Below are positions 1-17,696 of a stretch of 64,000 nt of DNA, piece by piece (position 1 is the stretch's first letter; each line of letters starts with the position of its first letter). A program made the translations under genes and the position numbers. The stretch lies in IMG/VR virus record IMGVR_UViG_3300042549_004104, positions 263,353 through 327,352 of that record; one strand, written 5' to 3'. The notes under the pieces were generated by a model. It was not told where the DNA came from. It made no database searches and saw only the letters and a list, made by a program, of their open reading frames with translations. Origin of the DNA: a virus. Taxonomy: Duplodnaviria > Heunggongvirae > Uroviricota > Caudoviricetes.

Positions 1-6
1 GGTAAC

Positions 7-273
7 ATGCGCTATAACACTAAGTTACAAAAAATGGAAGTGTTTGATGGTGCGAATTGGATTATATTGAATTCAACTATTGCTAGTGTTGGGCTTACTG
101 ATGAGGCTGAATCATTGCTTGACTGGGCTAGACAAAAACGTAATGAAGAATTAGAACTTGAAATCCTTGCACAAACTAATCCTACTATCAAAGATTTAGT
201 AGAACAACTTAAAGAAAAACAACATCAAATCAAAATGGTTCAAACACTAATCAAAAAAGAAACAACAGTTTAA
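7..273 (+). CDS. hypothetical protein; reading frame is open to the window edge, so possibly 5'-partial
   Basis: ORF in the same orientation as neighbours; its stop overlaps the next start (TAATG). No recognisable motif. Confidence 0.4.
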   Translation: MRYNTKLQKMEVFDGANWIILNSTIASVGLTDEAESLLDWARQKRNEELELEILAQTNPTIKDLVEQLKEKQHQIKMVQTLIKKETTV

Positions 274-1853
274 TGGAACAAGATAACTTAACGCAAAAAC
301 AAAACCCAGAGTGGGCATTGTTCTTGCCCGCAGTCAGCAGTTTTTATATTAGTGGTTTAGGTAAACAACGTGAAGGTGAAAACTATTTTGACCAAGCACG
401 TATACCCACCGGCTTTAATGGTGATGTAGAGAAACTTAATTTTCTTAATAAGAAAGAGGGACTTTATTATTACAAATGGGGATTGTATAGTGCAGGTCAT
501 GCGAACTTAGACGTTACTAAAGATGACCATAATGAAAGTATCATTCGTAAACGTGATCCAGATACATTCATGTTAGGTGATTCAGGTGGTTTCCAGATTT
601 TAAAGGCACAATGGCCTGCTGACTGGAAAGATCCTAATTGTCCTCGCGCCATGAAGAAGCGTCAACAAGTTTTAACTTGGATGGATACGTATATGGATTA
701 TGGTATGTGTTTAGATATTCCAAGTCAATCATTGACTACGTTTCATATCAAAGACCCAAAGACAGGTACGAGTGCTCATGGCATCAGTACTATTGAAGAA
801 GCTATCGCTGCCACACATATTAACAATGAATATTTCATTAAGCATAGAAACGGTGAATGTAAATTCTTAAATGTATTGCAAGGTCGTAATCATACTCAAA
901 GTGATGATTGGTATGCTGAGATGAAAAAATATTGCGATCCAAACATCTATCCAGACAATCATTTTAATGGTTGGGCTTTCGGTGGTCAAAATAAAATTGA
1001 TATCGAATTGATGTTAACACGTATGATAGATATCATACACGATGGATTATTACAAGAAGGTAAACATGATTTGATTCATTGTTTGGGCACAAGCATTTTA
1101 GAGTATGCAGTATTGTTTACTGATATTCAAAAAGCAATACGTAAATATCATAACCCAAAACTACAAATTACATTTGATTGTGCTAGCCCATTCTATGGTG
1201 CGGCTAAAGGTTTAGCATATTTCAATACTAGCATTGCACATAATAAAAAATGGTCATATAGTATGGAAAAAACTGCGGATGACAAAAGGTTTGGTGTACC
1301 TCAACAAGGTATGGCAGGTGGTGACCAACGCAAATTCCGTGATGCTGTATTGGCTGAAGGTGTCCACAAAGTCTTTACAGATAGTCCAATTACTGATAAA
1401 ATGTTACTTAGGGATTTGTGTTATAGAGGTCAAGGCTTCTTAGGACAACATAGTAAAGAAACAAAAACTAGTTGGGATACTTTGAGTTATACATTGATTC
1501 AATCACATAATGTTTGGATGCACATGAACGCAGTTCAGGAAGCTAACAGACAATATGAACAAGGTGTAGTACCTAAAATGATTTATCATAAACTACAAGG
1601 ACCTCAGTTCTTTAGTAACTTAGTAGATGATATTTTTTCAAAGAAAACTAAACAAGAATCACTTGACCTGATTCAATACTATTCAGGTTATTGGACACAA
1701 TTTCAATCAGGTAGTCAAGGTATTAGTGGTAAGAAAACTGTTAATGCTATGACAATGTTTGACAAATTATTTGATGTACAAGAATCTGAGCCAGAAATTG
1801 ATGAAGAAATACTTGATAGTGATGATGCGATATTAGAAGCATTAGGAGAATAA
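273..1853 (+). CDS. dpdA: DpdA-like 7-deazaguanine transglycosylase (tRNA-guanine transglycosylase superfamily)
   Basis: Conserved TGT catalytic motif LGDSGGFQ near the N-terminus. Length and beta/alpha-barrel-like spacing fit. Sits in a cluster with FolE, QueD and QueE. The canonical CxCxxC..H zinc site is not obvious, as in phage DpdA proteins. Confidence 0.7.
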   Translation: MEQDNLTQKQNPEWALFLPAVSSFYISGLGKQREGENYFDQARIPTGFNGDVEKLNFLNKKEGLYYYKWGLYSAGHANLDVTKDDHNESIIRKRDPDTFMLGDSGGFQILKAQWPADWKDPNCPRAMKKRQQVLTWMDTYMDYGMCLDIPSQSLTTFHIKDPKTGTSAHGISTIEEAIAATHINNEYFIKHRNGECKFLNVLQGRNHTQSDDWYAEMKKYCDPNIYPDNHFNGWAFGGQNKIDIELMLTRMIDIIHDGLLQEGKHDLIHCLGTSILEYAVLFTDIQKAIRKYHNPKLQITFDCASPFYGAAKGLAYFNTSIAHNKKWSYSMEKTADDKRFGVPQQGMAGGDQRKFRDAVLAEGVHKVFTDSPITDKMLLRDLCYRGQGFLGQHSKETKTSWDTLSYTLIQSHNVWMHMNAVQEANRQYEQGVVPKMIYHKLQGPQFFSNLVDDIFSKKTKQESLDLIQYYSGYWTQFQSGSQGISGKKTVNAMTMFDKLFDVQESEPEIDEEILDSDDAILEALGE

Positions 1854-1854
1854 T

Positions 1855-2310
1855 ATGGAACAACAAATACAACAAGCACAATTTGAAAAACGAGTACGTA
1901 TTGCAAAACATGCAAGACGTATGATTTTTGTAACATTTCAAAAAGAGGGTATTCACATGTACCCTGCGGCGGCAACAGATCCAAAACTCGCAACGGGTGA
2001 TGAATATGATGTTAGCTTTTTAGGAACTCCACATCGTCACATATTTCATTTTAATGTGGCGATTGAAGTATTTCACAACGATAGGGATATTGAGTTTATT
2101 CAATTCAAACGCTGGTTAGAAAACCTCTATAAAGGTGGCACACTTGAATTGAATTACAAAAGTTGTGAAATGATTAGTGACGATTTGTATAACCAAATCG
2201 CTACTAGATATCCCGACCGTAGTATTGAAATTACTGTCTCCGAAGATGGTGAGAACGGTGCTACGATTTATTATAACACAACAAAACCTTATCAATCAAT
2301 CGCTATTTAA
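1855..2310 (+). CDS. hypothetical protein within the deazaguanine cluster
   Basis: GGAG Shine-Dalgarno (SD) 8 nt upstream; tightly coupled to dpdA. No QueC (SGGxDS) or QueF (E-S/L-K-S/A-h-K-L/Y-Y/F/W) signature found. Confidence 0.5.
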   Translation: MEQQIQQAQFEKRVRIAKHARRMIFVTFQKEGIHMYPAAATDPKLATGDEYDVSFLGTPHRHIFHFNVAIEVFHNDRDIEFIQFKRWLENLYKGGTLELNYKSCEMISDDLYNQIATRYPDRSIEITVSEDGENGATIYYNTTKPYQSIAI

Positions 2311-2324
2311 AAGGAAAATTAAAA

Positions 2325-2531
2325 ATGGCAAAACCTTCATTTCAACCTAATCCTCGTGTACATCAAATTTTTGAAGATTTGGAAAAGTATTTAGAATTTT
2401 GTGTAGACTATGGATATAAGTTTGACGAAACAACATTATATGATATGCGTAGTTTTCCATATCGTCAACATCAAAAACAATTAGCAGGTAAAGATGCAAA
2501 AAATTCTTGGGATGCTGATACAAGAGTATAA
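2325..2531 (+). CDS. hypothetical small protein
   Basis: AAGGA SD; 68 aa. Confidence 0.4.
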   Translation: MAKPSFQPNPRVHQIFEDLEKYLEFCVDYGYKFDETTLYDMRSFPYRQHQKQLAGKDAKNSWDADTRV

Positions 2532-2533
2532 CA

Positions 2534-3706
2534 ATGCGTAAATTATATTACATGGGTCTTGAGCCTTATAAGGCAAGATACACTTTGCAATTACAAGAGT
2601 GGAATCGTGCTGTCTTTGATAAACGGGGAATTGATTATGTCATTGTTCCCGGTGAAACACTAAGTAACGACCAAGCTATTGTTACTGGTCAAGTATTAGA
2701 TGCACATGGTCGCACATATTTTGGCATGTCACAACTTATGAATTTGATTCGTATGATGAAAGCAGGAGAACTGAACAATGAAGATGTTATCTACTTTGAG
2801 GATATGTTTCAACCCGGTATCGAGAGTCTTCCTTATATACTTAATCAAATCGACAGTATTAATCGTCCTCGCATTTTTGTTCGCTGTCTTGCTCAATCCA
2901 TTGATCCTGATGATTTCGTTCATGTATGGGGCATGTCTGACTTTATGGGTCACTATGAAAAGATGGTTGATTCATTCGTAGATGGTGTTCTTGCTACTAA
3001 TGAAGAAATGGTAATGAATATGAAGATTGCAGGTTGGAAAGCACCAATCTACAATATTTCAGGTCTAGCATTTGGCAAAGAAGAAGTACGTAGTCGTGTT
3101 GGTGAGCTAAAGCTATTTGATAAGCGTAAAAAGCGAATTGCATTCTCTGCACGTTGGGATCAGGAGAAACAACCTGACTTCTACATGGATGTGATTGAAG
3201 AATTTCATAAACGTTTTGAAGATGTAGCAGAATTTTGTGTATTCAGTGGCAGTAAATTAAAGAGTAACAATAGTAGCTATATGGAACGCACTAATCAAAT
3301 GCGTAAAGATGGCAAACTTAAAGTATATGAAGATTTAGAAAAGAATGCCTATTATGAATTACTTAACGATACACGAATTGTATTCAACTGTGCATTACAA
3401 GATTGGGTAAGCAATACAGTAAGTGAAGCAGATGCATTGGGATGTAATGTATGCTACCCGGCATATCGTAGCTTTCCCGAAACGTTTGCTAATGACCACA
3501 CAAGACTGTATACTCCATGGAGTGTAGAAGATGCCGCAATTAAGTTATTCAATATGTTACATCAACCGAGCATAAAGCAAGGTCAAATCAGTGATTGGAA
3601 CAATGGTACTATTGACCGTATTTGTGATATCATGGAAGGCAATGGTGAGCAATGGTTAAGAATGAGTACAGATTATCGCAAGCACACAAGAGAAAGCAAA
3701 TATTAA
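2534..3706 (+). CDS. hypothetical protein, possibly a GT-B-fold glycosyltransferase
   Basis: 390 aa. The C-terminal half has a GT-B-like pattern (RIAFSARWDQEKQPDF ... EADALGCNVCYP, E..E-type motif). The similarity is weak. Confidence 0.45.
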   Translation: MRKLYYMGLEPYKARYTLQLQEWNRAVFDKRGIDYVIVPGETLSNDQAIVTGQVLDAHGRTYFGMSQLMNLIRMMKAGELNNEDVIYFEDMFQPGIESLPYILNQIDSINRPRIFVRCLAQSIDPDDFVHVWGMSDFMGHYEKMVDSFVDGVLATNEEMVMNMKIAGWKAPIYNISGLAFGKEEVRSRVGELKLFDKRKKRIAFSARWDQEKQPDFYMDVIEEFHKRFEDVAEFCVFSGSKLKSNNSSYMERTNQMRKDGKLKVYEDLEKNAYYELLNDTRIVFNCALQDWVSNTVSEADALGCNVCYPAYRSFPETFANDHTRLYTPWSVEDAAIKLFNMLHQPSIKQGQISDWNNGTIDRICDIMEGNGEQWLRMSTDYRKHTRESKY

Positions 3707-3845
3707 TGTCTGAACGTAAAATGATTTTTACTAAAGATATGAGTGTAGGTCTTCCTTGGGAAGAAGGATTACTTGAATGGTTACACGAAAATTATCCTTA
3801 TAGTGGATATCATGTTGTAACATTAATTTAAAATAAGGAATAAAC

Positions 3846-4580
3846 ATGGCAACTTGGAAATTATCAACATACTGGAAGAAAAGTTCAATTGAACGACAGA
3901 TTTGGGTAAAGGATGATAAAGTAATTATCCGTGAAGAAGGTTATCGCTGGGGTACATTCTATGTTCAATCTGATGAACGTCCTCTTACTGATGAAGAATT
4001 AATCAATAAGCATGGGTATGAACTTGGTTGTTTAGACAATGATGAGTGTTGGGAACTAGATAACTTAGATGATGGCTGTTGGGCTGATAATGAAGCAGGT
4101 AGAAATTGTACTGAGGAAGACTTAGAGGCATTTGAAGAAGCCTGGGAAGAAAATTCTTATGAAGGTGTTGAAGAATTAGGTTGGTCTAATGATGACACTG
4201 AGTTTGAATTTCAAGGACCATTAGTGTTGACTAATGAAGATACTGGTGAAGAATTTAATGGTGAGACTATTAAAGAGTCAATGCCAGAAAAAGTAGTAGT
4301 TGAACATAAACCACTAAGTACTACGGCAGCTTGGCCCTTTGGTGATTCAACAGATAAACACATTGAACTTGATCCAGCTAAATGGCCCTCTCCAAATGGT
4401 AATTTTGTAGAAACAGCTAAATGGCCCTTTGATAAATCATCAGAAATTTCTAGCATGAAGTGTACAGAATGTGATTGGACTGGTGATTGGACTGAGACAA
4501 ATAGTAAAGAAATTGATGGGGTAGAATTTGATACTTGTCCTGTATGCAATGGAATAGTTGAAGATAAAGAGGAAGAATAA
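3846..4580 (+). CDS. highly acidic protein with internal AKWP repeats and a C-terminal zinc ribbon (CTECDW...CPVCNG); paralog of 32821-33369
   Basis: Strong AAGGA SD. D/E-rich composition. CxxC...CxxC at the C-terminus. Confidence 0.55.
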   Translation: MATWKLSTYWKKSSIERQIWVKDDKVIIREEGYRWGTFYVQSDERPLTDEELINKHGYELGCLDNDECWELDNLDDGCWADNEAGRNCTEEDLEAFEEAWEENSYEGVEELGWSNDDTEFEFQGPLVLTNEDTGEEFNGETIKESMPEKVVVEHKPLSTTAAWPFGDSTDKHIELDPAKWPSPNGNFVETAKWPFDKSSEISSMKCTECDWTGDWTETNSKEIDGVEFDTCPVCNGIVEDKEEE

Positions 4581-4768
4581 TGGCTACTAAGAAAAAAGTA
4601 AGAATTGAACTATACGCAGAAGCACCTTATATGCAAGGCTATGCATCTGGTATAGCAAATGAAAAGTTTTTTAATCCGTACGCAGACATTGAAAATGCAG
4701 AGGCTGATGCTGATGACTATCAACGTGGATTTGAGAATGCTACAGAAACTGTAGAAAGCGTAGAGTAA
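4580..4768 (+). CDS. hypothetical acidic small protein
   Basis: ATGA-type coupling to the upstream gene; 62 aa. Confidence 0.45.
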   Translation: MATKKKVRIELYAEAPYMQGYASGIANEKFFNPYADIENAEADADDYQRGFENATETVESVE

Positions 4769-4788
4769 TTTAACATAAAGGAAATAAA

Positions 4789-4977
4789 ATGAATGCACAT
4801 AACGATATTAAAACACACTTTGATGAATACTTAATGGAGAACGAAAAGTTTGTCAAAGGTAATTCATCAGCAGGCACACGTGCCCGTAAAGCACTAGCAG
4901 AAATGGCTAAAGCTATTAAAGCACGCCGTAATGAAATTACTGCTGAGAAAGCCGCAAGAAAAGAAGCTAAGGCTTAA
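4789..4977 (+). CDS. small basic Lys/Ala-rich protein (histone-like composition)
   Basis: AAGGA SD. C-terminal half reads KALAEMAKAIKARRNEITAEKAARKEAKA. Confidence 0.45.
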   Translation: MNAHNDIKTHFDEYLMENEKFVKGNSSAGTRARKALAEMAKAIKARRNEITAEKAARKEAKA

Positions 4978-4991
4978 TCTGTGATAAATAC

Positions 4992-5015
4992 TTGTGCAAC
5001 ACAAAGGTTGCACAA
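4992..5015. promoter_or_regulatory. perfect 9-bp inverted repeat (ttgtgcaac-acaaag-gttgcacaa) immediately upstream of folE
   Basis: Palindrome read directly in the sequence. No U-tract follows it. It may be an operator or an RNA hairpin. Confidence 0.4.
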
Positions 5016-5050
5016 TGTCAAAACAAAACACTCACAACGGAGGGTTATCT

Positions 5051-5725
5051 ATGAGTTATAATAAGACAAAAACTGATCCTGAATTAGGATTAAAAGTACA
5101 CGAACATCTAGTCAAGATGGGTGTTGAAACGCCAACCAAACCTGATACTAGGGACCGTAAAGACAAAATTGAATTGATTGAAAGTTATTTTGAAGGCATC
5201 ATGATGGCTTTGGGCCTAGACCTAAGTGATGATAGCTTAATGGACACACCCAAGCGTGTTGCTAAAATGTATGTTAACGAAATTTTCTGGGGATTAGATT
5301 ATGAAGCATTTCCAAAGTGTACGACTGTCGATAACAAGATGCATTACAATGAAATGGTCGTTGAACGCAACGTTAACGTCCAAAGTAATTGCGAACATCA
5401 CTTTGTTGTTATTGATGGGTTGGCTACAGTGGCTTATGTTCCGAAACAAAGAGTCCTCGGACTATCAAAAATTAACCGTATTGTTGAGTATTTCAGCAAA
5501 CGCCCTCAAATCCAAGAGCGACTCACAGAACAAATCTTCCACACTCTCCAATTTATACTGGAGACTGAAGATGTTGCGGTAATGATTGATGCACAACATT
5601 ATTGTGTAAAGTCACGTGGTGTAGAAGATACTGGTAGTAGTACAGTTACAAGTCGTTTAGGTGGTGGGTTCAAAAATGACCCAGCGGCACGTGCTGAGTT
5701 CTATCAAATTGCGAGACAGAAATGA
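5051..5725 (+). CDS. folE: GTP cyclohydrolase I (FolE)
   Basis: Near-identical core to E. coli FolE: CEHHFVVIDG, VLGLSKINRIVEYFSKRPQIQERLTEQI, DAQHYCVKSRG. Start chosen at MSYNKTK because it has a GGAGG SD. The ORF track extends to a GTG at 4994 that lies inside the palindrome. Confidence 0.93.
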   Translation: MSYNKTKTDPELGLKVHEHLVKMGVETPTKPDTRDRKDKIELIESYFEGIMMALGLDLSDDSLMDTPKRVAKMYVNEIFWGLDYEAFPKCTTVDNKMHYNEMVVERNVNVQSNCEHHFVVIDGLATVAYVPKQRVLGLSKINRIVEYFSKRPQIQERLTEQIFHTLQFILETEDVAVMIDAQHYCVKSRGVEDTGSSTVTSRLGGGFKNDPAARAEFYQIARQK

Positions 5726-5940
5726 ATCCAAAGATTAAGGCATTAGAACAACAATGCTGGAGTCATCGTGTAGACGGAGTATTAGTAGATGGTCACTTGC
5801 ATTTTGATACGGCAAAGTTTGCTGAATTGATTGTTAAAGAATGTATCCATGCATGTGTTGCTGACATAGCAGATCCTAGAGATACAATCGAATTTAAATG
5901 TGCAAAGAAAATTAAAGAACATTTTGGAGTTAAAGAATGA
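5722..5940 (+). CDS. HFGVEE-family small protein (paralog 1 of 5)
   Basis: MNxKIKALE N-terminus, KFAELIVKEC core and C-terminal KEHFGVKE. ATGA-coupled to folE. Confidence 0.6.
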   Translation: MNPKIKALEQQCWSHRVDGVLVDGHLHFDTAKFAELIVKECIHACVADIADPRDTIEFKCAKKIKEHFGVKE

Positions 5941-6173
5941 ACGAGAAACTTAGAGAATTTGCTTTAGAAGCAGGCGGCAGTCACTATCCTGAAGTAAATC
6001 CAATGCAATTAAAAAAGTTTGCCGAGTTGATTATTCGTGAATGTGCTGATATTATCAATCATCGTGCTGACACATGCAGTGATTGGTTAGATAGTGTCAA
6101 GGCAAATGAAGCAGTCCGTGAAGGACAAAGAGAGTGTGCTAAAACGATCAAAGAACATTTCGGAGTTGAATAA
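5937..6173 (+). CDS. HFGVEE-family small protein (paralog 2 of 5)
   Basis: KFAELIIREC core and C-terminal KEHFGVE. ATGA-coupled. Confidence 0.6.
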   Translation: MNEKLREFALEAGGSHYPEVNPMQLKKFAELIIRECADIINHRADTCSDWLDSVKANEAVREGQRECAKTIKEHFGVE

Positions 6174-6282
6174 TGATCGATATTATCACATTAATTTGTT
6201 TAATAATAGTTGCTTGGTATATAGCGGGCAAGCTACCAAAAAGTAATTGCAACGGTGATTGCCAACAAGGTCGTAACTGCAC

Positions 6283-6558
6283 GTGCAAATGACAAACCGT
6301 TCACCTTTCAGGAATCAAGAAGAAGCGTTTGCCTTTCTAAGAAAGATAGGCATGAAAAATCGCAGAACACTAACTGGAATTGAACGTGAACACATGTTGT
6401 TAGTATTTGCATTGATTGACCCAATTGAATCTAGCAACAATCAACGAACATTTAGTGAAACTTATCATCATGTCGGTAAAGAATATGAAGTTACATATGG
6501 GTTCAGTGACTCGGGTGAACCCGACCCAATAGTAGAAGAATTGACGGAGTTAGAATGA
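6283..6558 (+). CDS. hypothetical protein
   Basis: ORF only; weak ribosome-binding site. Confidence 0.35.
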   Translation: MQMTNRSPFRNQEEAFAFLRKIGMKNRRTLTGIEREHMLLVFALIDPIESSNNQRTFSETYHHVGKEYEVTYGFSDSGEPDPIVEELTELE

Positions 6559-6765
6559 AACTATATAAGCACAGCAACGGTAAGACACATTTTTTCCCAG
6601 AAGTAATTCCTAAGGGATGGGAAGTTATGTTAAGACCAGATACTTTTGAAGTTGTGTGGCGTAAAATTAGGGGCAGAGAATGAAGGGCTATTATTGTGTA
6701 AAGTGTTTTGGACCGTTTGCTCGTTATCGACAAAACGGTTTGTGGCAGACTAATCATAGGTGCGG

Positions 6766-7236
6766 ATGATGATATTCAATAAGATTAAAGAACTTAAAGA
6801 ACGTGGATTGATTATTGGTATTACCTTTAGTCAATTTGACTTGTTACATGCCGGTCATATTGCAATGCTAAGTGAAGCAAAGAATCACTGTGATTATTTG
6901 ATTGCTGGATTGCAAAACAATGCACAATGGGATAGACCAGAAAAGAATGAACCAATTCAAAGTATTGTAGAACGACAAATAAGTTTGTGTGCGGTACGCA
7001 CAGTAGACGAGATTGTTATCTATAACACAGAGAAGGATTTATCTGACATTCTATTAACACTACCCATTGATGTGCGTATACTAGGTGTTGAATACGCAGA
7101 CAAAGATTTCAGTGGTAAAGAAATCTGTGAAAAACGCAACATTAAAATTATCTATAATGGGCGTGACCATAGTTTTAGTAGCAGTAGCCTACGAAAGAGA
7201 ATTTTGGAAGCCGAACAACAAAAACAAAAGTGGTAA
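6766..7236 (+). CDS. cytidylyltransferase-like nucleotidyltransferase (TagD/RfaE-domain-II-like; HxGH motif)
   Basis: FDLLHAGH (HIGH) motif 20 aa from the N-terminus and about 155 aa long, matching glycerol-3-phosphate cytidylyltransferase and ADP-heptose synthase adenylyltransferase domains. The ORF track starts at a GTG at 6760; the ATG at 6766 is more likely. Confidence 0.7.
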   Translation: MMIFNKIKELKERGLIIGITFSQFDLLHAGHIAMLSEAKNHCDYLIAGLQNNAQWDRPEKNEPIQSIVERQISLCAVRTVDEIVIYNTEKDLSDILLTLPIDVRILGVEYADKDFSGKEICEKRNIKIIYNGRDHSFSSSSLRKRILEAEQQKQKW

Positions 7237-7315
7237 ATAAAGATGACCGGCCTTATGGGCTCATCCCGGTATATAAATTCTGCGTCCTATGCTATAATTA
7301 ACATAGGAGAAAATA

Positions 7316-7879
7316 ATGGCAAACTCATCAACAAATGACTTAATACGTCACCTAGAAGAAAACTTTCAGTCACATCGCTGGAATTCAGCAAGACAATATA
7401 AATTCACAAGTACAAAAGAATATCACGATGCATTTCCATGTGCATATCGTCAATGGCGTGCAGACAGTCATTGCAATATGATTCATGGTTATAGTTTCAG
7501 TATGAAATTCTATTTCGGTACAGACAGTTTAGATGTACGTAACTGGGCGGCTGACTATGGTGGATTAAAAGAATTGAAAAAGATTCTTGAGGATCAATTC
7601 GACCACACCTTGTTAGTAGCACAAGATGATCCAGAACTTGAAACATTCAAAATGTTACAAGAAAAGAAATTGGCTAAGTTAACTATTCTACCACGAATCG
7701 GGTGCGAGAGTTTAGCCGACATGCTTTACAAATATGTCAATGGAGTGTATATTCCAGATATGTGGGGTCAAGGTGAGTCTGACCGTCTATGGTGTTATCG
7801 TGTTGAAGTACGTGAGACACAAGCAAACATGGCTTTCAGAGAAGGTCATCGTGAATGGAATGAAGATTTATTTGCATGA
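7316..7879 (+). CDS. queD: 6-carboxytetrahydropterin synthase-like (QueD/PTPS T-fold)
   Basis: AGGAGA SD. CNMIHGYSF resembles the QueD CxxxHGH zinc site, with one His replaced by Tyr. DHTLL and GCESLADML match downstream QueD/PTPS blocks. Confidence 0.7.
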   Translation: MANSSTNDLIRHLEENFQSHRWNSARQYKFTSTKEYHDAFPCAYRQWRADSHCNMIHGYSFSMKFYFGTDSLDVRNWAADYGGLKELKKILEDQFDHTLLVAQDDPELETFKMLQEKKLAKLTILPRIGCESLADMLYKYVNGVYIPDMWGQGESDRLWCYRVEVRETQANMAFREGHREWNEDLFA

Positions 7880-8112
7880 GTCCTGAACAACGAATCAAAG
7901 CTGCCGAAGAATGGGCTCAACTAAGAGTAGAGGCCGCAGAGCGTGAGCGTGATGAGGCATTGGGCTTAGTTAGTGCGGCACACTTAGAATTGATACATAG
8001 CATCAAGTATGGATTCAATCCTGGTACTGCACATAGCACACTAATTAGTGTGGGTAGATTAAGCCCAATGTTACAAGCAAGAATGAAACGAATGTTAGAA
8101 GAAAAAGAATGA
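7876..8112 (+). CDS. hypothetical protein
   Basis: ATGA-coupled ORF. Confidence 0.4.
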   Translation: MSPEQRIKAAEEWAQLRVEAAERERDEALGLVSAAHLELIHSIKYGFNPGTAHSTLISVGRLSPMLQARMKRMLEEKE

Positions 8113-8621
8113 GTAGCATAGAAAAGAATGATTTGTTTATGATTACATGTAATAATGTATTGCCTTCGTACGGTGAATTTAAAAAAATTATTGACTATGA
8201 AATAGAATATCACCTATATCAAACTGTTCCAAAATATCAATCTTATCCATTCATGCACGAAAAATATTATCATAATGAACTGTTAACTACGTTAATAAAT
8301 TTTACTTTAGACACCTTAAGAAAAAATAATAAATCAGATTTATTTCTAAAATTTTGTTGGTTTAATGTTTGTAAACAAGATTCAGAGTTTCAATGGCATA
8401 CTCATCCAACATCAAACGTATCCGCTATTTATTTTATGGATGGTTGTGAAGATAATGGTACCATACTTGACTATAACGGGACTATATTTCAAATTTTACC
8501 AAAAGAAAATAGTTTATTTATTTTTAATTCAACCATTTCTCATACTATACCAACTTGGAAAAATAAAAATAGATATTCTATTGCCTTAGAATTTCTACCA
8601 AATAAAACAATTAATAATTAA
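8109..8621 (+). CDS. hypothetical protein; possibly a double-stranded beta-helix or oxygenase-like protein
   Basis: ATGA-coupled. His-rich patches (WHTHPTS, ISHTIP). Assignment is weak. Confidence 0.45.
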   Translation: MSSIEKNDLFMITCNNVLPSYGEFKKIIDYEIEYHLYQTVPKYQSYPFMHEKYYHNELLTTLINFTLDTLRKNNKSDLFLKFCWFNVCKQDSEFQWHTHPTSNVSAIYFMDGCEDNGTILDYNGTIFQILPKENSLFIFNSTISHTIPTWKNKNRYSIALEFLPNKTINN

Positions 8622-8804
8622 GAAAAAATATGGTCAAACCAATTAAATTATGGCGTATATGGGCAAAAGCCTTAGGTGAAAAAACGGGAGCTACAAACAC
8701 AGAAGCTGACCACATCGCTTGCATCCGTACAGCAATAGTGATATCATATATTATAACAAACTGTTTTATTATAGCAGGCGTTATACGACATTGGTAATAA
8801 AATT

Positions 8805-9647
8805 ATGAATAAACTAAAAATATCAGAACTGTTTTACAGTGTACAAGGTGAAGGAAGATACATGGGTGTGCCAAGCGTGTTCTTACGCACGTTTGGTTGT
8901 AACTTTAAATGTGCTGGCTTCGGTATGTCTAAAGGAATGGAAAGTACAGAAAGGTTTAAAATAAATGCAGAAACTATTAAATCTTATAAATCACTACCAC
9001 TTGTTAGTACTGGATGTGATAGCTATGCGAGTTGGGATCCACGCTTCAAACATCTCAGTCCTTATTACGACATTGATACTATTGCCGATAATATTGTCAA
9101 TTTACTTCCTCATGGTCGTTGGAAAGATGAGCACTTGGTTATTACGGGTGGTGAGCCGCTCTTAGGCTGGCAACGTGAATATCCAGAGTTGTTATCACAT
9201 GATAATATGCGTGGATTACAAGAAATAACATTTGAAACTAATGGTACACAAATGTTATATCCTGAATTAGTTAATTATTTAAATGAATGGAAGAAACACC
9301 GCTATTTACATTGTCTAACATTCAGCGTAAGTCCTAAACTAAGTATCAGTGGTGAAAATTGGGAAGATGCTATTTGTCCCGATGTTGTTCAACAATATTA
9401 CAATACTGGTTATACTTATTTGAAATTTGTTGTAGCAACTAAAGAAGATGCAGAAGAAGCTGAACAAGCAGTTAATGAATATCGCAAACGTGGATTTAAA
9501 GGTCCTGTGTATCTTATGCCTTGCGGTGGTGTTACAGAACTTTATAATCTTAATAACAGAAAAGTTGCAGAACTTGCAATGCAAAAGGGTTGGCGCTATA
9601 GTGACAGACTACAAGTCCCGTTGTTCAAAAACGAATGGGGAACTTGA
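8805..9647 (+). CDS. queE: 7-carboxy-7-deazaguanine synthase-like radical-SAM protein (QueE family)
   Basis: The N-terminal ELFYSVQGEGRYMGVPSVFLRTFGCNFKC aligns with QueE (E.F.S.QGEG..G.P..F.R..GC...C), and VITGGEPLL matches the SAM-binding GGEP block. The third Cys of the canonical Cx3Cx2C is not in the usual place, so this is a divergent QueE. Confidence 0.7.
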   Translation: MNKLKISELFYSVQGEGRYMGVPSVFLRTFGCNFKCAGFGMSKGMESTERFKINAETIKSYKSLPLVSTGCDSYASWDPRFKHLSPYYDIDTIADNIVNLLPHGRWKDEHLVITGGEPLLGWQREYPELLSHDNMRGLQEITFETNGTQMLYPELVNYLNEWKKHRYLHCLTFSVSPKLSISGENWEDAICPDVVQQYYNTGYTYLKFVVATKEDAEEAEQAVNEYRKRGFKGPVYLMPCGGVTELYNLNNRKVAELAMQKGWRYSDRLQVPLFKNEWGT

Positions 9648-9916
9648 TGTTCGGAAGTAATTACAACGACTATAGAACAAAGTTAGGATATAATCCTAAA
9701 TTATCAACTGAAGCTGAATGGACATTTTACAAAACAGCAACATGGACAAAACAGTTTGCATGGTTGCCTCATCGGTGTAATCTTACTAAAAAATATATTT
9801 GGTTAGAAAATGCGTATAAAGGAACAGCAGAATATAGAGTTGATGATAATCATTTTATAAGTGAACATACATGGCATAATTATGACGAACACATTATTTG
9901 GGAATTACAAAGATGA
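9635..9916 (+). CDS. hypothetical protein
   Basis: ORF overlapping the queE stop. Confidence 0.4.
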   Translation: MGNLMFGSNYNDYRTKLGYNPKLSTEAEWTFYKTATWTKQFAWLPHRCNLTKKYIWLENAYKGTAEYRVDDNHFISEHTWHNYDEHIIWELQR

Positions 9917-10101
9917 TTGAACTACGCTGGTTAATACAAGCTGGGTGGGACGGACCCGAACAAGTATTGCAATATAGACAAAATCGTGATATAATAGACT
10001 ATAGCAGAAAAGATAGTAATGGTTCTTTTCTAAAGACAACTGAAATAACAGAGTGGATCACAGTACCCACAGTAGATGAGGTATGGAATGCAGATTTATG
10101 A
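9898..10101 (+). CDS. hypothetical protein
   Basis: Overlapping, coupled ORF. Confidence 0.35.
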   Translation: MGITKMIELRWLIQAGWDGPEQVLQYRQNRDIIDYSRKDSNGSFLKTTEITEWITVPTVDEVWNADL

Positions 10102-10820
10102 CAACTAAATCAATTAAAATAGCAGTTTTAATAGTAGGAGAATATCGTACATTTGCACAATGTAGGAGAACTATGACTTTCCTAAATGATCCTAAGGTAG
10201 ATGTATATTTTAGTACATGGGATACAACCAATACCCTTAATCCATTAATTAATAAGATAGGACCGTATGCAATTAAACCAAGAAAAGTATCATTTGAGGA
10301 AATACAACGAGCATTGAATATACCACATGCTACTATAAAAATTCACAAAAAACCAGAACACAATGATACTTTTTTAATAATGCGAGAGGGTTGGTTTTTA
10401 GGAATGCAAATGGTTATAGATTCAGGTAAAGATTATGATTTTATTTATGTTATGAGACCTGATTTATATTATGAGAATAAATTTGTGTTTAAAGATATTA
10501 ATTACAATGAGTATGAGAACAATATAGGTCTTTTATATATTCCCGATGAAAATAATAATGCTGACGATACTTCATTCTTTTCAACATATTCTAACATTAA
10601 AAAATTATTAAATACAGATGTGTTAAAAATACATCAAACCCCGGAAGAAGGAAATTTACACGTTGTATGGTTTAAATATATATCTGATAAAGGATTCTCC
10701 TTTACTAAAATGCCGTACAGTTCAAGTTATGTTATTGGTAGATATCCAATAACAAATAACACTACTTGGGAAGAGGCATTCACACAGTATTGGAATTTAT
10801 TTCATAACAGACCAATATGA
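10083..10820 (+). CDS. hypothetical protein (245 aa)
   Basis: Coupled to the neighbouring sugar-module genes. Confidence 0.45.
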   Translation: MECRFMTTKSIKIAVLIVGEYRTFAQCRRTMTFLNDPKVDVYFSTWDTTNTLNPLINKIGPYAIKPRKVSFEEIQRALNIPHATIKIHKKPEHNDTFLIMREGWFLGMQMVIDSGKDYDFIYVMRPDLYYENKFVFKDINYNEYENNIGLLYIPDENNNADDTSFFSTYSNIKKLLNTDVLKIHQTPEEGNLHVVWFKYISDKGFSFTKMPYSSSYVIGRYPITNNTTWEEAFTQYWNLFHNRPI

Positions 10821-12193
10821 ACTATAATAAACTAGTTATATTTGATTTAGATGGGGTATTGATAGAAAGTAAGGAACTGCATTATGATTCCTTGAATTTA
10901 TCATTAAGTAAATTAAGTCCTAAGCATATAATTTCCAGGGAAGAGCATTTAAGTGTATATGATGGATTGACCACTACTAACAAACTTGAATTACTAGCTC
11001 ATAAAAAAGGATTGAATAGGGGACTGTTTGATACTATCTGGCAAGAAAAACAAAAAGCAACAATAGATTTATTATTGCAGACTAGTGAAAATTTATTATT
11101 AAAAAGTATTTTTCGTACCCTATCTGAGCATGGAATAAAAATAGCAGTTGCTAGTAACAGTATAAGAAAATCATTACAAATATCTCTTTTAAAATTAGGT
11201 ATTTTAGAATATATTGATTTCTATGTTTCTAATCAAGATGTGAGTAAAGCTAAACCATTTCCAGAAATGTATTGGAAATGCATGACACAATTAAATGCTA
11301 TCCCAAAAACAACTATAATTATAGAAGATAGTCATATTGGTAGACAGGCTGCATTAGATTCTGGTGCACAATTATTACCTGTTAATACACCTGAAGATGT
11401 GAACGAAGAATTATTAAAACAAATACTGTCAGCATTCGATGGTAAATATATAACAAAAGTACCCTGGAGAAATAATAAAATGAATGTTTTGATTCCAATG
11501 GCAGGTGCAGGTAGTAGATTTGCACAAGCAGGATATTCGTTTCCTAAACCATTAATTGAAGTTAATAGAAAACCGATGATTCAGGTGGTGATAGAAAATT
11601 TGAATATTGAAGCACGTTATATATTCTTAGTTCAAAAAGAACACTATGAAAAATATAATTTAAAACAATTATTAAATATACTCACTCCAAACTGTGAGAT
11701 TGTTCAAGTAGATGGTGTGACAGAAGGCGCCGCAGTAACTACTTTATTAGCAAAAGAATATATTAATAACAATGAGCCATTATTAATAGCAAATTCAGAC
11801 CAATACGTAGAGTGGAATAGTAATGAATGTTTATATAGTTTTACTACCGATCAAATTGACGGTGGAATCGTAACATTTAAATCAACACATCCTAAATGGT
11901 CTTTTGCTAAATTAGGAGAAGATGGGTTTGTTGCTGAAGTAGCAGAAAAAAATCCAATAAGTGATAATGCAACAGTTGGGATATATTATTGGAAACATGG
12001 TAAAGATTATGTCAAGTATGCAGAACAAATGATACAAAACAATACTAGAGTGAATAATGAATTTTATGTTTGCCCAGTGTTCAATGAAGCAATAAAAGAT
12101 AATAAGAAAATCAAAATCAAAGAAATAGAAAAAATGTGGGGCATCGGTACTCCTGAAGATTTATTATATTTTTTGAATAATCACAAAGAATGA
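10817..12193 (+). CDS. bifunctional HAD-superfamily phosphatase / sugar-phosphate nucleotidyltransferase
   Basis: N-terminal HAD motif I VIFDLDGVLIES with a beta-PGM-like layout. The C-terminal half has VLIPMAGAGSRFAQAGYSFPKPLIEV, typical of GT-A-fold NDP-sugar pyrophosphorylases and cytidylyltransferases. Confidence 0.7.
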   Translation: MNYNKLVIFDLDGVLIESKELHYDSLNLSLSKLSPKHIISREEHLSVYDGLTTTNKLELLAHKKGLNRGLFDTIWQEKQKATIDLLLQTSENLLLKSIFRTLSEHGIKIAVASNSIRKSLQISLLKLGILEYIDFYVSNQDVSKAKPFPEMYWKCMTQLNAIPKTTIIIEDSHIGRQAALDSGAQLLPVNTPEDVNEELLKQILSAFDGKYITKVPWRNNKMNVLIPMAGAGSRFAQAGYSFPKPLIEVNRKPMIQVVIENLNIEARYIFLVQKEHYEKYNLKQLLNILTPNCEIVQVDGVTEGAAVTTLLAKEYINNNEPLLIANSDQYVEWNSNECLYSFTTDQIDGGIVTFKSTHPKWSFAKLGEDGFVAEVAEKNPISDNATVGIYYWKHGKDYVKYAEQMIQNNTRVNNEFYVCPVFNEAIKDNKKIKIKEIEKMWGIGTPEDLLYFLNNHKE

Positions 12194-12660
12194 AATTAAT
12201 AGCACATAGGGGACTGGTAAAAGGTCCTGACAAAATATTAGAAAACACTCCTAAGCAAATTGAGTTCGCAATAAAGGAAGGATTTGACTGTGAGGTTGAT
12301 ATATGGTCTATCGATAATGTTTATTATTTAGGTCATGACGATCCTGAATATAGAATAGATAAAGATTTTTTATCCAATCCTCATTTATGGTTACATGCTA
12401 AAAACATAGAAGCACTGGACAAATTATCATTGACTAGCTTTAATTTTTTCTGGCACCAAAATGACGATTACACATTAACTAGTCATAGATATATTTGGAC
12501 ATATCCAGGTAAATCAATGTCACGACATAGTATTATGGTTATGCCAGAATGGCAAAATAGTTCTTTTAGTAACTTATATGACCAAAATTGCTATGGTATT
12601 TGTAGTGATTACGTGTATAATATAAGAGAACAAATGAGAACAAATGAGAACATACGATAA
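12190..12660 (+). CDS. glycerophosphodiester phosphodiesterase (GDPD)-like protein, short form
   Basis: N-terminal IAHRGL..PENT...EFAIKEGFDCEVDIW....LGHDD matches the GDPD HR(G)...E.D...HD signature. At 156 aa it is truncated relative to canonical GDPD. Confidence 0.5.
   Translation: MKLIAHRGLVKGPDKILENTPKQIEFAIKEGFDCEVDIWSIDNVYYLGHDDPEYRIDKDFLSNPHLWLHAKNIEALDKLSLTSFNFFWHQNDDYTLTSHRYIWTYPGKSMSRHSIMVMPEWQNSSFSNLYDQNCYGICSDYVYNIREQMRTNENIR
12622..12651. repeat. short tandem repeat gagaacaaat x2 followed by gagaacatac at a gene junction
   Basis: Read directly in the sequence. It duplicates the ATGAGAACA start context of the next gene. Confidence 0.6.
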
Positions 12661-14005
12661 ACGAATTGGCTTCTTAGTAAGCTATCAAACACTTATACCC
12701 CACGGTGGTATCGGTCAATTCACTAAGAGTTTTATTGAACTAATGGATCAGCATAACATAAAAGTTGATATCATTACTGACAAGGAATTAAATCCTGAGA
12801 ATCAAGACTTCATCAACGAGCTAGGTCTAGGTAAGTTTCAACCACCTACAGTTATTACCCCTGAGAAGTCTCTACCATACACCACACATAGCAACATCTT
12901 TATGTATGGTGATACTTTTAACTATGAGCGTATGGCTAACTTCCGTAATAGTATTATTAAGGCACTTGAAAATAATTTGTATGATGCACTCATTTGTAAT
13001 ACATACGAAACAGTGCAGGTTGCGAGTACAATGGGGTTAGAAGATTGCATCCAAATCATTGCATATACTCATTTAGAAAGTCAAATCTTTAAGGATACAA
13101 AGAATCCTTTCTTAAACAATACCAATGTAATGATGCGTCAGCAACTTACTACACCAGGTATATCTGTTGGAACACAAAGCAAATACAATTGGCTTAACCT
13201 AGATGAATCATCTTATCATTTACCTATCCCAATTACTGAACGAGGATTACTAGAAGAACATCACAACCCACGTGAAGGCGTATTGTTTGTTGGTCGCTGG
13301 GAAGAAGGTAAGAATCCAGAATTGTTTTGTGATTTGATTGAACAAACAAAACTCCCAGCTAAAGTAATGACTAGTGCAAATGGTGCTAAGAAATTCGAAG
13401 GACGATTAAAGAAGATTGGGGTACCCTATGAAATCAAAGTGGGTATCATTGGTCAAGAAAAGGTAAACTTTATCACAAGTGCTAGAGTTGCATTCAATCC
13501 TAGCACAGTAGAGAGTTATGGTATGGCATTCTATGAGCAAACAACTCAATTACCAACATTCTGTTTAGAGAATCAACGCTGGACTAATAACTTTAAAGGA
13601 CAATTCTTTTTTGAAACTAATAAAAAGAACATGGCAGTAGATGTTAAGGGTGCATACGATACATTCTCAACTGCAAAAGAATGGTACAGTCATGGGTCAC
13701 TACTACACACTATACAATTAGAAAAAAATGTATTTCATAAATGGAATGAATGTTTTAATGAGTTTAAACCAAAACAATCTAATAGCAACACTGCTAAGAT
13801 TTTAGAAAACACTACAGTCAAACACAGTGATTACATCAAAGATTTGAATCGCAGTTTAATTTGTATTGATGATATCCGTAGCGTCTTGACCAATAAACAC
13901 AAGTATCGTGTAATCTATACAGACAACGAAACTTATCTGACTAAGGATCCAAGTTACGAACCAATAGAAGAGGCAATAGGTATAAACCTATTTGATTTTG
14001 CATGA
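12644..14005 (+). CDS. GT-B-fold glycosyltransferase (GT4-like)
   Basis: The LFVGRWEEGKNPELF block resembles the GT4 donor-binding region. 453 aa. Confidence 0.5.
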   Translation: MRTYDKRIGFLVSYQTLIPHGGIGQFTKSFIELMDQHNIKVDIITDKELNPENQDFINELGLGKFQPPTVITPEKSLPYTTHSNIFMYGDTFNYERMANFRNSIIKALENNLYDALICNTYETVQVASTMGLEDCIQIIAYTHLESQIFKDTKNPFLNNTNVMMRQQLTTPGISVGTQSKYNWLNLDESSYHLPIPITERGLLEEHHNPREGVLFVGRWEEGKNPELFCDLIEQTKLPAKVMTSANGAKKFEGRLKKIGVPYEIKVGIIGQEKVNFITSARVAFNPSTVESYGMAFYEQTTQLPTFCLENQRWTNNFKGQFFFETNKKNMAVDVKGAYDTFSTAKEWYSHGSLLHTIQLEKNVFHKWNECFNEFKPKQSNSNTAKILENTTVKHSDYIKDLNRSLICIDDIRSVLTNKHKYRVIYTDNETYLTKDPSYEPIEEAIGINLFDFA

Positions 14006-14826
14006 AGAAAATTTTAATCACAGGTAACTCAGGCTACATCGGCAGTCATTTAAGTAAGATGTTGAATGACGAATACGAAGTCTATGGATTAGACAAAGTA
14101 GGTCCTCAATTCAAAGTTAAGAAACATTATAATCTTGACATTAAAAGCCAGCTTAAAGTCAATGAAGAATTTGATTGTATCATTCATTTAGCCGCACTAG
14201 TCAATGTAGGCGAGAGTGAACTACAGCCTACAGACTACTACATGACTAATTTGTTTGGGACATTGAATATCCTACAACATATTAAAACAAAGAACTTTAT
14301 ATTTGCTAGTACTGGTGCAGCCGAAAAGTGTGAAAGTGCTTATGGTGTTAGTAAACGGGCAACAGAAGATTGTGTAAGAGAATTCTGTCAAGTAAACAAA
14401 GTTCCATTTACTACATTTAGATTTTACAACGTAATTGGCAGTGATGGATTCAAACCTACCAATCCTGATGGCTTGATGTATAATATAATGAGAGCTCCTA
14501 AACTAGGATATTTTAATATCTTTGGTAACGATTATGCAACTAAAGACGGTACTTGCGTTAGAGATTATGTACATGTTAATGAAATTTGTAACAGTATCAA
14601 GTTAGCGATTGAAACACCTAGTAATAGTTTAGAGAACTTAGGTCATGGGGTAGGAAATACTGTTAAAGAAATGGTCGAATTGTTCAAACAGGTTAACCAA
14701 ACTGATTTTGAAATACGATATACTAACCGAAGAGAAGGTGATATTGAATACAGTGTGCTTAATAATCCAAGTTCATATATGAGAAAAGTATACACTATCG
14801 AGGATTTGCTAAAAGTTGACAATTAA
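14002..14826 (+). CDS. NAD-dependent epimerase/dehydratase (SDR family, UDP-sugar 4-epimerase-like)
   Basis: N-terminal ILITGNSGYIGSHL Rossmann GxxGxxG. YxxxK-type region (AYGVSKRA). ATGA-coupled. Confidence 0.8.
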   Translation: MKKILITGNSGYIGSHLSKMLNDEYEVYGLDKVGPQFKVKKHYNLDIKSQLKVNEEFDCIIHLAALVNVGESELQPTDYYMTNLFGTLNILQHIKTKNFIFASTGAAEKCESAYGVSKRATEDCVREFCQVNKVPFTTFRFYNVIGSDGFKPTNPDGLMYNIMRAPKLGYFNIFGNDYATKDGTCVRDYVHVNEICNSIKLAIETPSNSLENLGHGVGNTVKEMVELFKQVNQTDFEIRYTNRREGDIEYSVLNNPSSYMRKVYTIEDLLKVDN

Positions 14827-14850: not shown

Positions 14851-15870
14851 ATGACTAATCAAAACATTAAACGTATTGGCTTTGCTTGCAAGTGGGCAGA
14901 GATTAACAAAAAAGGTGAAATAGTCAGTACTCAGGGACTGAATACTGGCGGCACTACTATGGCATGGGCCAAACGCAATAAGCGTTCTACAGTGGAGGAA
15001 AAAATTATTGATGTTGCTAAAACTAATATCAATAATACTCATGCACTGATTAAGAAAGTTGCAGAATTACCCCCTGAACTACGTATGTTGCGATTAACTA
15101 GTGACATGTTGTCATTCTACACACATGAGGACTACTCATACTTTTGGCAAGATACTAATACACAAGATAGTCTAGCACGTTGGTTTGCACCCTTAGGTGA
15201 GACTGCACGTAAGCATGATATCCGACTAAGTTTTCATCCCGATCAATTTGTTGTATTAGCAAGCGACCGTGACGAGGTAGTAAATAAGAGTATAACTGAA
15301 TTTGAATATCACTGTGACATGGTGCGTTGGTTAGGCTATGGCAAAACATTTCAAGACTTCAAAGTTAACGTACACATTAGTGGCCGTAAAGGCCCTCAAG
15401 GCATCAGGGATGTGTATGGTAGGTTATCACCTGAAGCACGAAACACACTTACATTAGAAAACGAGGAATATACACATGGAGTCATTGACTGCCTTTCATT
15501 ATCTGATCTTGTCCCAACTGTTCTTGACATTCATCACCATTGGATTAGGGAGGGCGAATATATTAGCCCCGATTCGGAGATTGTTAACCGTGTTGTTGAT
15601 AGTTGGAGGAATGTCCGTTCTACTTTACATTATTCCGTCAGTCGGGAAGATGTACTTGGAGAACATGACCGATCTGTCGCACCCAATCATGGTGCGTTGA
15701 TTGAATCAGGACACAGTAAACAAAAATTACGTGCCCATTCAGATTACTATTGGAATGATGCAGTGAACGATTGGGCATTGACATTCCTTGATAAATTTGA
15801 TATAATGTGCGAAAGCAAAGCTAAGAACTTAGCCAGCTTTAAATTATACGAGAGAGTAAAAAATGTTTGA
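14851..15870 (+). CDS. uvdE: UV DNA damage endonuclease (UvdE/UVDE family)
   Basis: Blocks RLSFHPDQFVVLAS, TLENEEYTH, LDIHHHW and HSDYYW match UvdE TIM-barrel motifs (RTSFHPNQF, TLENDDKTYT, FDFHHF, HADYV). Confidence 0.8.
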   Translation: MTNQNIKRIGFACKWAEINKKGEIVSTQGLNTGGTTMAWAKRNKRSTVEEKIIDVAKTNINNTHALIKKVAELPPELRMLRLTSDMLSFYTHEDYSYFWQDTNTQDSLARWFAPLGETARKHDIRLSFHPDQFVVLASDRDEVVNKSITEFEYHCDMVRWLGYGKTFQDFKVNVHISGRKGPQGIRDVYGRLSPEARNTLTLENEEYTHGVIDCLSLSDLVPTVLDIHHHWIREGEYISPDSEIVNRVVDSWRNVRSTLHYSVSREDVLGEHDRSVAPNHGALIESGHSKQKLRAHSDYYWNDAVNDWALTFLDKFDIMCESKAKNLASFKLYERVKNV

Positions 15871-17640: not shown

Positions 17641-17665
17641 CAAATATTGTATACGGGTATACAAT
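17637..17665 (+). promoter_or_regulatory. sigma70-type promoter (TTGACA-17-TACAAT) for the downstream large gene
   Basis: ggTTGACAaatattgtatacgggtaTACAATat. The ORF-track start at 17637 is the TTG of the -35 box. Confidence 0.65.
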
Positions 17666-17696
17666 ATACACATATCAACAACTCTTTGGAGTAAAC

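Follow-up and report, generated by a model that had tools for sequence, protein, structure and literature searches.

A divergent DpdA and a DpdL homologue in a predicted QueC-less 7-deazaguanine DNA-modification cluster of an uncultured jumbo phage

A 64,000-nucleotide (nt) stretch of DNA from a Caudoviricetes virus (IMG/VR record IMGVR_UViG_3300042549_004104, positions 263,353 to 327,352; hereafter 'the window', meaning the whole stretch analysed) carries at positions 273–9647 a cluster of genes for 7-deazaguanine DNA modification of the Dpd type, in which a divergent DpdA-like protein, a homologue of DpdL and a glycosyltransferase-like protein stand together with FolE, QueD-like and QueE-like enzymes. 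The pathway is predicted to be the known QueC-less branch that departs at 7-carboxy-7-deazaguanine (CDG), with 2′-deoxy-7-deazaguanosine (dDG) as its product in DNA. With moderate confidence, we propose that the cluster most likely replaces guanine in the phage DNA with 7-deazaguanine after replication, as a defence against restriction. The QueC-less route itself was already published in 2023 (Cui, Hutinet et al., NAR 2023, PMC10516641); what goes beyond the known cases is a divergent, unannotated and abundant DpdA clade, its link to Pseudomonas phage PA5oct and a glycosyltransferase gene linked to dpdL.

Results

The cluster is a series of open reading frames (ORFs) that all run on the forward (+) strand of phage-like DNA with ~35% G+C. 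The window belongs to a metagenomic contig of 359,425 bp (Ga0453135_0000002, JGI 3300042868), the length of which points to a jumbo phage as the source. On this parent contig a B-family DNA polymerase gene lies ~1.2 kb upstream of the first ORF of the cluster (ORF1, 273–1853), and the same ~1.2-kb spacing from DNA polymerase to dpdA was found in PA5oct and in two further loci (L010 and L011). Comparison of positions 1–10,000 with 50,697 phage genomes by megablast returned no match. An initial annotation, made from the sequence alone, had placed dpdA-like, folE, QueD-like and QueE-like genes within 9 kb of each other and read them as a Dpd-type 7-deazaguanine DNA-modification cluster. All four do share the + strand and together span no more than 9.4 kb. 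The analysis bears out the cluster type, the TGT fold of the DpdA-like protein and the lack of QueC in view, from which the pathway would branch at CDG. Two members of the cluster had been overlooked, namely the DpdL homologue (1855–2310, +) and a conserved GT4-like partner (2534–3706, +).

For comparison, 80 IMG/VR loci were retrieved through DpdL; these are fairly close relatives of the window and hence not independent. A DpdA-like gene was present in all of those with room for it (72/72) and in each case adjoined the dpdL homologue, which argues that the arrangement in the window is not a product of chance.

The DpdL homologue starts two bases after the end of the dpdA-like ORF. In BLASTP its product aligned with DpdL of Cellulophaga phage phiST (gp040, CGPG_00067) at 34% identity over 122 residues (E = 3e-18), and it matched phrog_17812 at E = 9e-37. 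The segment L56-GTP-H60-R-H62-I-F64 reproduces the published DpdL motif LxxxHRHxF exactly, with L56, H60, H62 and F64 invariant in an alignment of seven DpdL sequences; this motif takes the place of CxxxHGH in QueD, so that the catalytic cysteine is gone. By tblastn the protein reached Cellulophaga phages phiST, phi13:1 and phi19:2, and more than 580 DpdL relatives were found in IMG/VR. Direct comparison of DpdL and QueD by hhalign, using small alignments, gave a weak match (Prob 60%, E = 9e-5, 39 columns), and a HHpred probability of 99.9% has been reported for DpdL against the QueD family PF01242 (PMC10516641).

DpdL is described as a QueD paralogue and has been proposed as the CDG decarboxylase of phiST (PMC10516641). 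In the DNA of phiST, phi13:1 and phi19:2, deoxyguanosine is replaced by dDG, with no deoxynucleoside of CDG (dCDG) detected, and phages with DpdL encode FolE, QueD, QueE and DpdA but not QueC (PMC10516641). A literature search for DpdL beyond the 2023 paper found none.

ORF1 encodes a protein of 526 aa, predicted to be a DNA-guanine transglycosylase of the DpdA family. It carries the motif DSGGFQ at residues 103–108 (nt 579), from which the initial annotation had assigned it to the tRNA-guanine transglycosylase (TGT) superfamily, while naming absence of the TGT fold as grounds for dropping that reading. AlphaFold2 modelling with a 61-sequence alignment, composed of two divergent groups of homologues, showed the TGT-type (β/α)8 barrel at high confidence (predicted local distance difference test score, pLDDT, 86.7; predicted template modelling score, pTM, 0.86); a single-sequence model (pLDDT 33) was not usable. 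In Foldseek searches of the PDB with the alignment-based model, the top ten matches were all tRNA-guanine transglycosylases (E ~ 1e-6 to 4e-3). Among the viral models of BFVD, DpdA2 of Vibrio phage nt-1 was matched at E = 4e-10, a DpdA1-type mycobacteriophage protein at 4e-5 and DpdA3 of phiST weakly at 5.4e-3.

At the level of sequence profiles, a comparison by hhalign between the ORF1 family and five aligned DpdA2 sequences gave a probability of 97.4% (E = 1.4e-11), a match confined to the core (residues 98–320 of ORF1; 188 columns, 18% identity). The DSGGxQ, LD-IP, LQG, IHxLG and SxDS motifs were in register both in this comparison and in the hmmsearch alignment to DpdA of Acidovorax phage ACP17. 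We therefore place the catalytic core of ORF1 at approximately residues 98–320; the acidic tail (residues 479–526) is disordered. Four residues, D103, D148, H269 and D302, are conserved in 99–100% of the ORF1 family. D103 of DSGGFQ is retained in 99% of 109 family members and aligns with DSGGLQ of DpdA2, and the second catalytic aspartate, in F-D302-C-A-S-P, is present in 100% of members and aligns with S-Y-D-S of DpdA2. We take D103 to be the counterpart of Asp102 of Zymomonas mobilis TGT, the first catalytic Asp in D-S-G-G-[FL]-Q, and D302 presumably corresponds to the nucleophile Asp280 in the 'FDC' of the same enzyme.

General-purpose models did not recognise the protein: ORF1 had no match in Pfam (including PF01702), NCBIfam or PHROG even at E = 10, and phmmer and profile hmmsearch against PDB sequences returned nothing meaningful. 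The hidden Markov model (HMM) of the ORF1 family gave weak matches to DpdAs of the DpdA2 type (ACP17, E = 2.6e-9; Synechococcus phage BUCT-ZZ01, 8e-4; Xanthomonas phage X1, 0.017) and scored DpdA2 of Vibrio phage VH7D at 21.9 bits; tblastn with ORF1 reached no DpdA2 phage. ACP17 DpdA is itself 34–37% identical to DpdA2 of Vibrio phages nt-1 and VH7D, and the VH7D enzyme has been validated experimentally, inserting preQ1, preQ0 or CDG into DNA in E. coli according to what the cell supplies (PMC10516641). Membership in DpdA3 was considered and rejected (BLASTP E = 0.14; family HMM E = 0.013, 10 bits; Foldseek 5.4e-3). Since the TGT zinc motif, a match to curated TGT models and similarity to DpdA3 are all missing, we filed ORF1 under a clade of its own within the DpdA family, made up of long proteins (~520–540 aa) and best regarded as sister to DpdA2 and outside DpdA3. 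Exchange of guanine for a deazaguanine on DNA is its predicted activity.

This clade is large. At 90% identity the homologues of ORF1 fell into at least 6,400 clusters, and at 50% identity into 813, all of them unnamed; many reside on contigs of 150–480 kb. Matches of ORF1 in cultured phages were to Pseudomonas jumbo phages of the PA5oct group (32% identity), to Sinorhizobium phage Phosso and to a jumbo phage of Vibrio.

The enzymes that would supply the precursor are encoded downstream on the same strand. GTP cyclohydrolase I (FolE, 4994–5725) scored well above the cutoffs of NF006824 (322 bits, cutoff 202) and TIGR00063 (238 bits, cutoff 181.6) and matched PF01227 (205 bits) and phrog_2197; the JGI gene call places its start at the ATG at 5015, giving a product of 236 aa. 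A QueD-like 6-carboxytetrahydropterin synthase (7316–7879) was identified by PF01242 (59.8 bits, cutoff 22.4) and phrog_2389 (1e-37), with TIGR03367 below cutoff, and is 56% identical to QueD of ACP17 and 34% to that of phiST. It retains the catalytic cysteine within C-NMI-H-G-Y. The initial annotation had called this motif atypical, which is true relative to bacterial QueD only, as CxxxHGY occurs in all five phage QueDs compared (window, phiST, ACP17, HD01 and BUCT-ZZ01), including that of phage HD01, which has both QueC and DpdA. Being the phage norm, the motif says nothing of new chemistry.

The radical S-adenosylmethionine (SAM) enzyme encoded at 8805–9647 matched phrog_2076 ('QueE-like', 2e-53, 182 bits) and is a QueE-like 7-carboxy-7-deazaguanine synthase. 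Five NCBIfam QueE models matched at 43–53 bits, below their cutoffs of 200–300, and the only solved relatives found were the PDB QueEs 6nhl, 4njg and 5tgs. The third cysteine of the cluster motif, reported as missing by the initial annotation, is in fact present: in the arrangement C32-x3-C36-x34-C71 all three cysteines are invariant relative to the QueEs of phiST, PA5oct and ACP17, and C71-D72 is the C-D that closes the canonical QueE motif, shifted by a 34-residue insertion (residues 37–70). A similar, longer insertion is found in PA5oct QueE, and none in ACP17, which has plain Cx3Cx2C, or in phiST. With the cysteine triad intact and the QueD motif typical of phages, the divergent chemistry that had been suggested on account of these two proteins falls away.

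QueC was sought in several ways. No SGGxDS PP-loop motif occurs in the six reading frames of the 64-kb window, tblastn with QueC of phage HD01 found nothing there, and Pfam scans of the 50 larger ORFs of the window revealed neither QueC nor QueF, in agreement with the initial annotation. QueC was also found in none of the 80 related IMG/VR loci. With a DpdL homologue present alongside FolE, QueD, QueE and DpdA, we provisionally assign the cluster to the known QueC-less 'CDG branch'. The inserted base had initially been given as CDG or a derivative of it; the wording 'derivative' covers dDG, while CDG was named first. The DpdL homologue adjoins dpdA, and in phiST dDG but no dCDG has been detected; for these reasons we predict dDG, not CDG, as the base.

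The third gene of the cluster (2534–3706) encodes a GT4-like glycosyltransferase of the GT-B type, a candidate for an extra step in the pathway. All six aligned homologues matched PF00534 (best E = 5.5e-6) and the profile of the family matched the GT4 structures 6tvp and 6eji; the window protein alone matched PF00534 at E = 0.0018, below the cutoff. Homologous genes were located at L004:10804–11832, L001:11617–12678, L012:9001–10167 (BUCT-ZZ01) and L094:2806–3966 (X1). In every lineage examined (the window, L010, L011, BUCT-ZZ01, Phosso, ACP17, PA5oct, X1, BUDD and BCSR5), a GT4-like gene lies beside dpdL or within a few kb of it, a linkage that extends over unrelated phages and is independent of whether the DpdA belongs to the long clade or to DpdA2; in ACP17 the gene is flanked directly by dpdA and dpdL, the stops and starts overlapping or abutting. 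Only 23 of the 50,697 phage records contain this gene, all of them with deazaguanine genes (18 with DpdL, 5 with phage QueD). Of the 55 related loci with enough space to hold it, 50 have it. The protein is 65% identical between the window and BUCT-ZZ01, and between the window and L010/L011 it is 58% identical, compared with 35% for DpdA. A literature search for a dpdL-linked glycosyltransferase found no mention of one.

Further genes related to sugars were noted around the cluster. The ORF at 12644–14005 (+, 453 aa) is 38% identical (E = 4e-93) to a 447-aa protein of BUCT-ZZ01 (L012:6010–7353) that is encoded between folE and dpdA; it had no Pfam match and looks like a second GT-B protein from its N-terminal 'GGIGQF' pattern, and it may be part of the deazaguanine system. 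Between folE and queD, a cytidylyl/adenylyl-transferase-like protein (6760–7236, +) was identified by PF01467 (3e-10) and phrog_7878 (3e-28), with TIGR02199 and TIGR01518 below cutoff; its gene was found in 28 of the 80 related loci. This protein would, if it belongs to the system, possibly supply an activated sugar or polyol. Sugar-activation and sugar-transfer genes around the cluster (6760–7236, 10817–12193, 14002–14826 and 60229–60948) comprise cytidylyl/adenylyl-transferase-like, haloacid dehalogenase (HAD) phosphatase–nucleoside triphosphate (NTP)-transferase fusion, NAD-dependent epimerase/dehydratase and GT2 types.

Comparison with characterised systems places the window closest in gene content to phages of the DpdL type. 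The phiST cluster (FolE, QueD, QueE, DpdL, DpdA3; PMC10516641) shares the QueD motif CxxxHGY, QueE, the lack of QueC, the LxxxHRHxF motif of DpdL and a TGT-superfamily DpdA near replication genes. It differs in the size of DpdA (259 aa versus 526 aa here), in having no GT4-like partner and in containing MazG-like and ATPase-domain genes that were not seen in the window; phiST is, moreover, a siphovirus of 78 kb, as opposed to the ~ 359-kb jumbo phage considered here. ACP17, which has been named as a phage with dpdL and dpdA (PMC10516641), X1 and BUCT-ZZ01 likewise resemble the window in having DpdL (37–56% identity for ACP17 and BUCT-ZZ01), the GT4-like protein (22–65%), FolE, QueD and QueE in a cluster that lacks QueC, but their DpdAs are of the DpdA2 type and 416–437 aa long. 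In BUCT-ZZ01 a protein annotated as xanthine-guanine phosphoribosyltransferase is encoded between queE and queD (L012:4093–4554), a hint that some phages use a route at the level of nucleotides. In X1 a protein annotated as belonging to the 3′-phosphoadenosine 5′-phosphosulfate (PAPS) reductase family follows folE directly (L094:1197–1730) in a cluster with GT, DpdA, DpdL and QueE.

PA5oct (Wroclawvirus, EST35_0316–0318 and 0322) is the cultured phage that shares the long DpdA clade with the window (32% identity over 80% of the protein). Its genes run in the order DNA polymerase, structural protein, small ORF, DpdA-like, GT-like and DpdL, with QueE four genes on, so that dpdA is followed, as in the window, by GT4-like, DpdL (59%) and QueE genes in a cluster just downstream of DNA polymerase. 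The two differ in that the PA5oct cluster proteins are annotated as hypothetical, except QueE, and nucleotide similarity to the window is nil. PA5oct DNA shows G-specific resistance to restriction, and the phage is restricted by a nuclease that targets phages with modified G (PMC12191111). By contrast, DpdA2 of VH7D and nt-1 and bacterial DpdA (PDB 7ui4) insert preQ0 or preQ1 made via QueC and QueF, bacterial DpdA needs DpdB, and, relative to these enzymes, ORF1 carries additional regions at both termini and lacks a Zn-binding Cys motif.

The remaining genes of the window were recorded as follows. Between queD and queE, a 2-oxoglutarate (2OG)-Fe(II) oxygenase is encoded at 8109–8621 (+; PF13759, 1.5e-8; phrog_81), which was not seen in the gene lists of L010 and L011. 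Just upstream of folE lies a 62-aa Lys/Ala-rich ORF (4789–4977), found in 29 of the 80 related loci; in the annotation of the parent contig, the identical gene is assigned to PF07432 (Hc1, a histone H1-like nucleoid protein). Two overlapping tandem small paralogues (5722–5940 and 5937–6173) have KFAELI-x-x-EC in common and the C-terminal pattern CAK-x-IKEHFGV. An HNH/NUMOD3 homing-endonuclease-like ORF (16276–17640) stands between genes for a UvdE UV-endonuclease (14851–15870) and a ResIII-type helicase (17637–19505). Cargo genes encode SPFH/Band-7 (31610–32404), Hsp20 (40663–41106), ClpP protease (44633–45220; 259 bits), dCMP deaminase (51348–51884) and Fe/Mn superoxide dismutase (60974–61525) proteins. 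A 629-aa protein (38704–40593) matches phrog_22485, a family of unknown function, over its full length at 925 bits and is thus strongly conserved, albeit unannotated.

Discussion

In the pathway that we propose, FolE would convert GTP to dihydroneopterin triphosphate, QueD would form 6-carboxytetrahydropterin and the radical-SAM enzyme QueE would produce CDG, which the DpdL homologue is predicted to decarboxylate to 7-deazaguanine. The 526-aa DpdA-type enzyme with its TGT fold would then swap guanine in DNA for 7-deazaguanine after replication, probably by way of D103 and D302, and the resulting dDG-containing DNA, having no N7, would resist G-dependent restriction enzymes. What the sequences show is which proteins and folds are encoded, how the genes are linked and that no QueC is in view; the enzymatic activities, decarboxylation ahead of insertion rather than after it, and how far guanine is replaced are inferred. 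The GT4-like glycosyltransferase hints at an additional step.

A number of points weigh against this proposal. When dpdL and dpdA of either phiST or ACP17 were co-expressed in E. coli, no dDG was obtained, and the authors of the 2023 study considered that unknown enzymes may be needed for dDG formation in that host (PMC10516641); the decarboxylase activity of DpdL is a proposal for every member of the family. The TGT zinc motif CxCxxC...H was not found in ORF1, nor is any cysteine conserved at ≥80% across its family, and there is no usable pairwise similarity between ORF1 and DpdA3 of phiST, the enzyme of the phage with established dDG. The linked GT4-like gene is absent from phiST, for which reason the end product in the window phage may differ from plain dDG. 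The absence of QueC was established over 64 of ~ 359 kb, leaving room for a distant copy, and the chemistry of this phage and of its DpdA clade is read here from genes.

The alternative to which we give most weight, if tentatively, is further modification of the inserted deazaguanine, in which the GT4-like protein would add a sugar or polyol to the base or its precursor to give a hypermodified (glycosylated) 7-deazaguanine; the second GT-B-looking protein and the nearby nucleotidyl-transferase and epimerase genes may act as helpers. The adjacency or proximity of the GT4-like gene to dpdL in the lineages listed above and its restriction to records with deazaguanine genes (all 23) speak for such a role, as do its stronger conservation relative to DpdA (58% versus 35% between the window and L010/L011) and the occurrence, within the cluster or next to it, of sugar-activation genes and another GT-like protein. 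In ACP17, moreover, the gene is wedged between dpdA and dpdL, the two genes that gave no product in E. coli when expressed without it, and nucleases described as sensing hypermodified DNA act on PA5oct (PMC12191111). On the other hand, phiST makes plain dDG with a DpdL and no such glycosyltransferase, 7-deazaguanine offers no hydroxyl for O-glycosylation, and literature searches found neither a glycosylated purine in DNA nor a glycosylated deazaguanine. The assignment of the window protein to a glycosyltransferase family is also weak (PF00534 at E = 0.0018, below cutoff), and the sugar genes could instead serve glycosylation of the host surface or the virion. The chemistry could be C-glycosylation, at the electron-rich carbon of the pyrrole, or else formation of a glycosyl ester of CDG. 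The broader proposition, that in many large phages DpdA, DpdL and the GT4-like protein together furnish DNA with a 7-deazaguanine that bears a sugar or depends on the GT in some other way, we regard as rather doubtful.

Insertion of CDG itself, leaving dCDG in the DNA as in the initial annotation, would suit the fact that the canonical pathway enzymes present end with QueE, and there are precedents in VH7D DpdA2, which inserts CDG in a queC mutant, and in a Sulfolobus virus with dCDG (PMC10516641); the DpdL homologue immediately after dpdA, and dDG without dCDG in phiST, which has the same gene set, make it improbable. Incorporation before replication, in which the base is made into a nucleotide and used by the phage polymerase while the TGT-like protein is otherwise employed, would explain complete replacement more easily and would fit both the position of dpdA beside the DNA polymerase gene and the xanthine-guanine phosphoribosyltransferase inside the deazaguanine operon of BUCT-ZZ01. 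However, a homologue of that phosphoribosyltransferase was not found in the window and occurs in just 1 of the 80 related loci, DpdA is conserved with its catalytic aspartates intact, and the authors of the 2023 study make the case that insertion follows replication in every known instance (PMC10516641), so that we consider this route very unlikely. Slighter still is the chance that the genes act on RNA, with the TGT-like protein modifying tRNA in a queuosine-type auxiliary metabolic function: although the fold is common to tRNA-guanine transglycosylases, the protein comes closest in structure to the DNA enzyme DpdA and in sequence profile to DpdA2, which acts on DNA, synthesis of preQ0 and preQ1 requires QueC and QueF, the window contains no tRNA genes, and G-specific restriction resistance is a property of the relative PA5oct (PMC12191111).

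Conclusions

Post-replicative replacement of guanine by 7-deazaguanine thus remains the reading that we favour. The QueC-less route has been known from a handful of cultured phages, and the window places it in an abundant lineage of uncultured jumbo phages, with a DpdA clade that annotation pipelines miss, being unseen by Pfam, NCBIfam and PHROG models. For PA5oct, a Pseudomonas phage relevant to therapy, the prediction is that its modified G is dDG or a derivative of it. The dpdL-linked glycosyltransferase may be a component that the known pathway lacks, or it may carry out additional hypermodification. Were the product indeed sugar-bearing, it would stand as the first case in any genome of a purine base with a sugar attached, the failure of dpdA and dpdL alone in heterologous expression would have an explanation, and environmental jumbo phages would carry such systems in great numbers.

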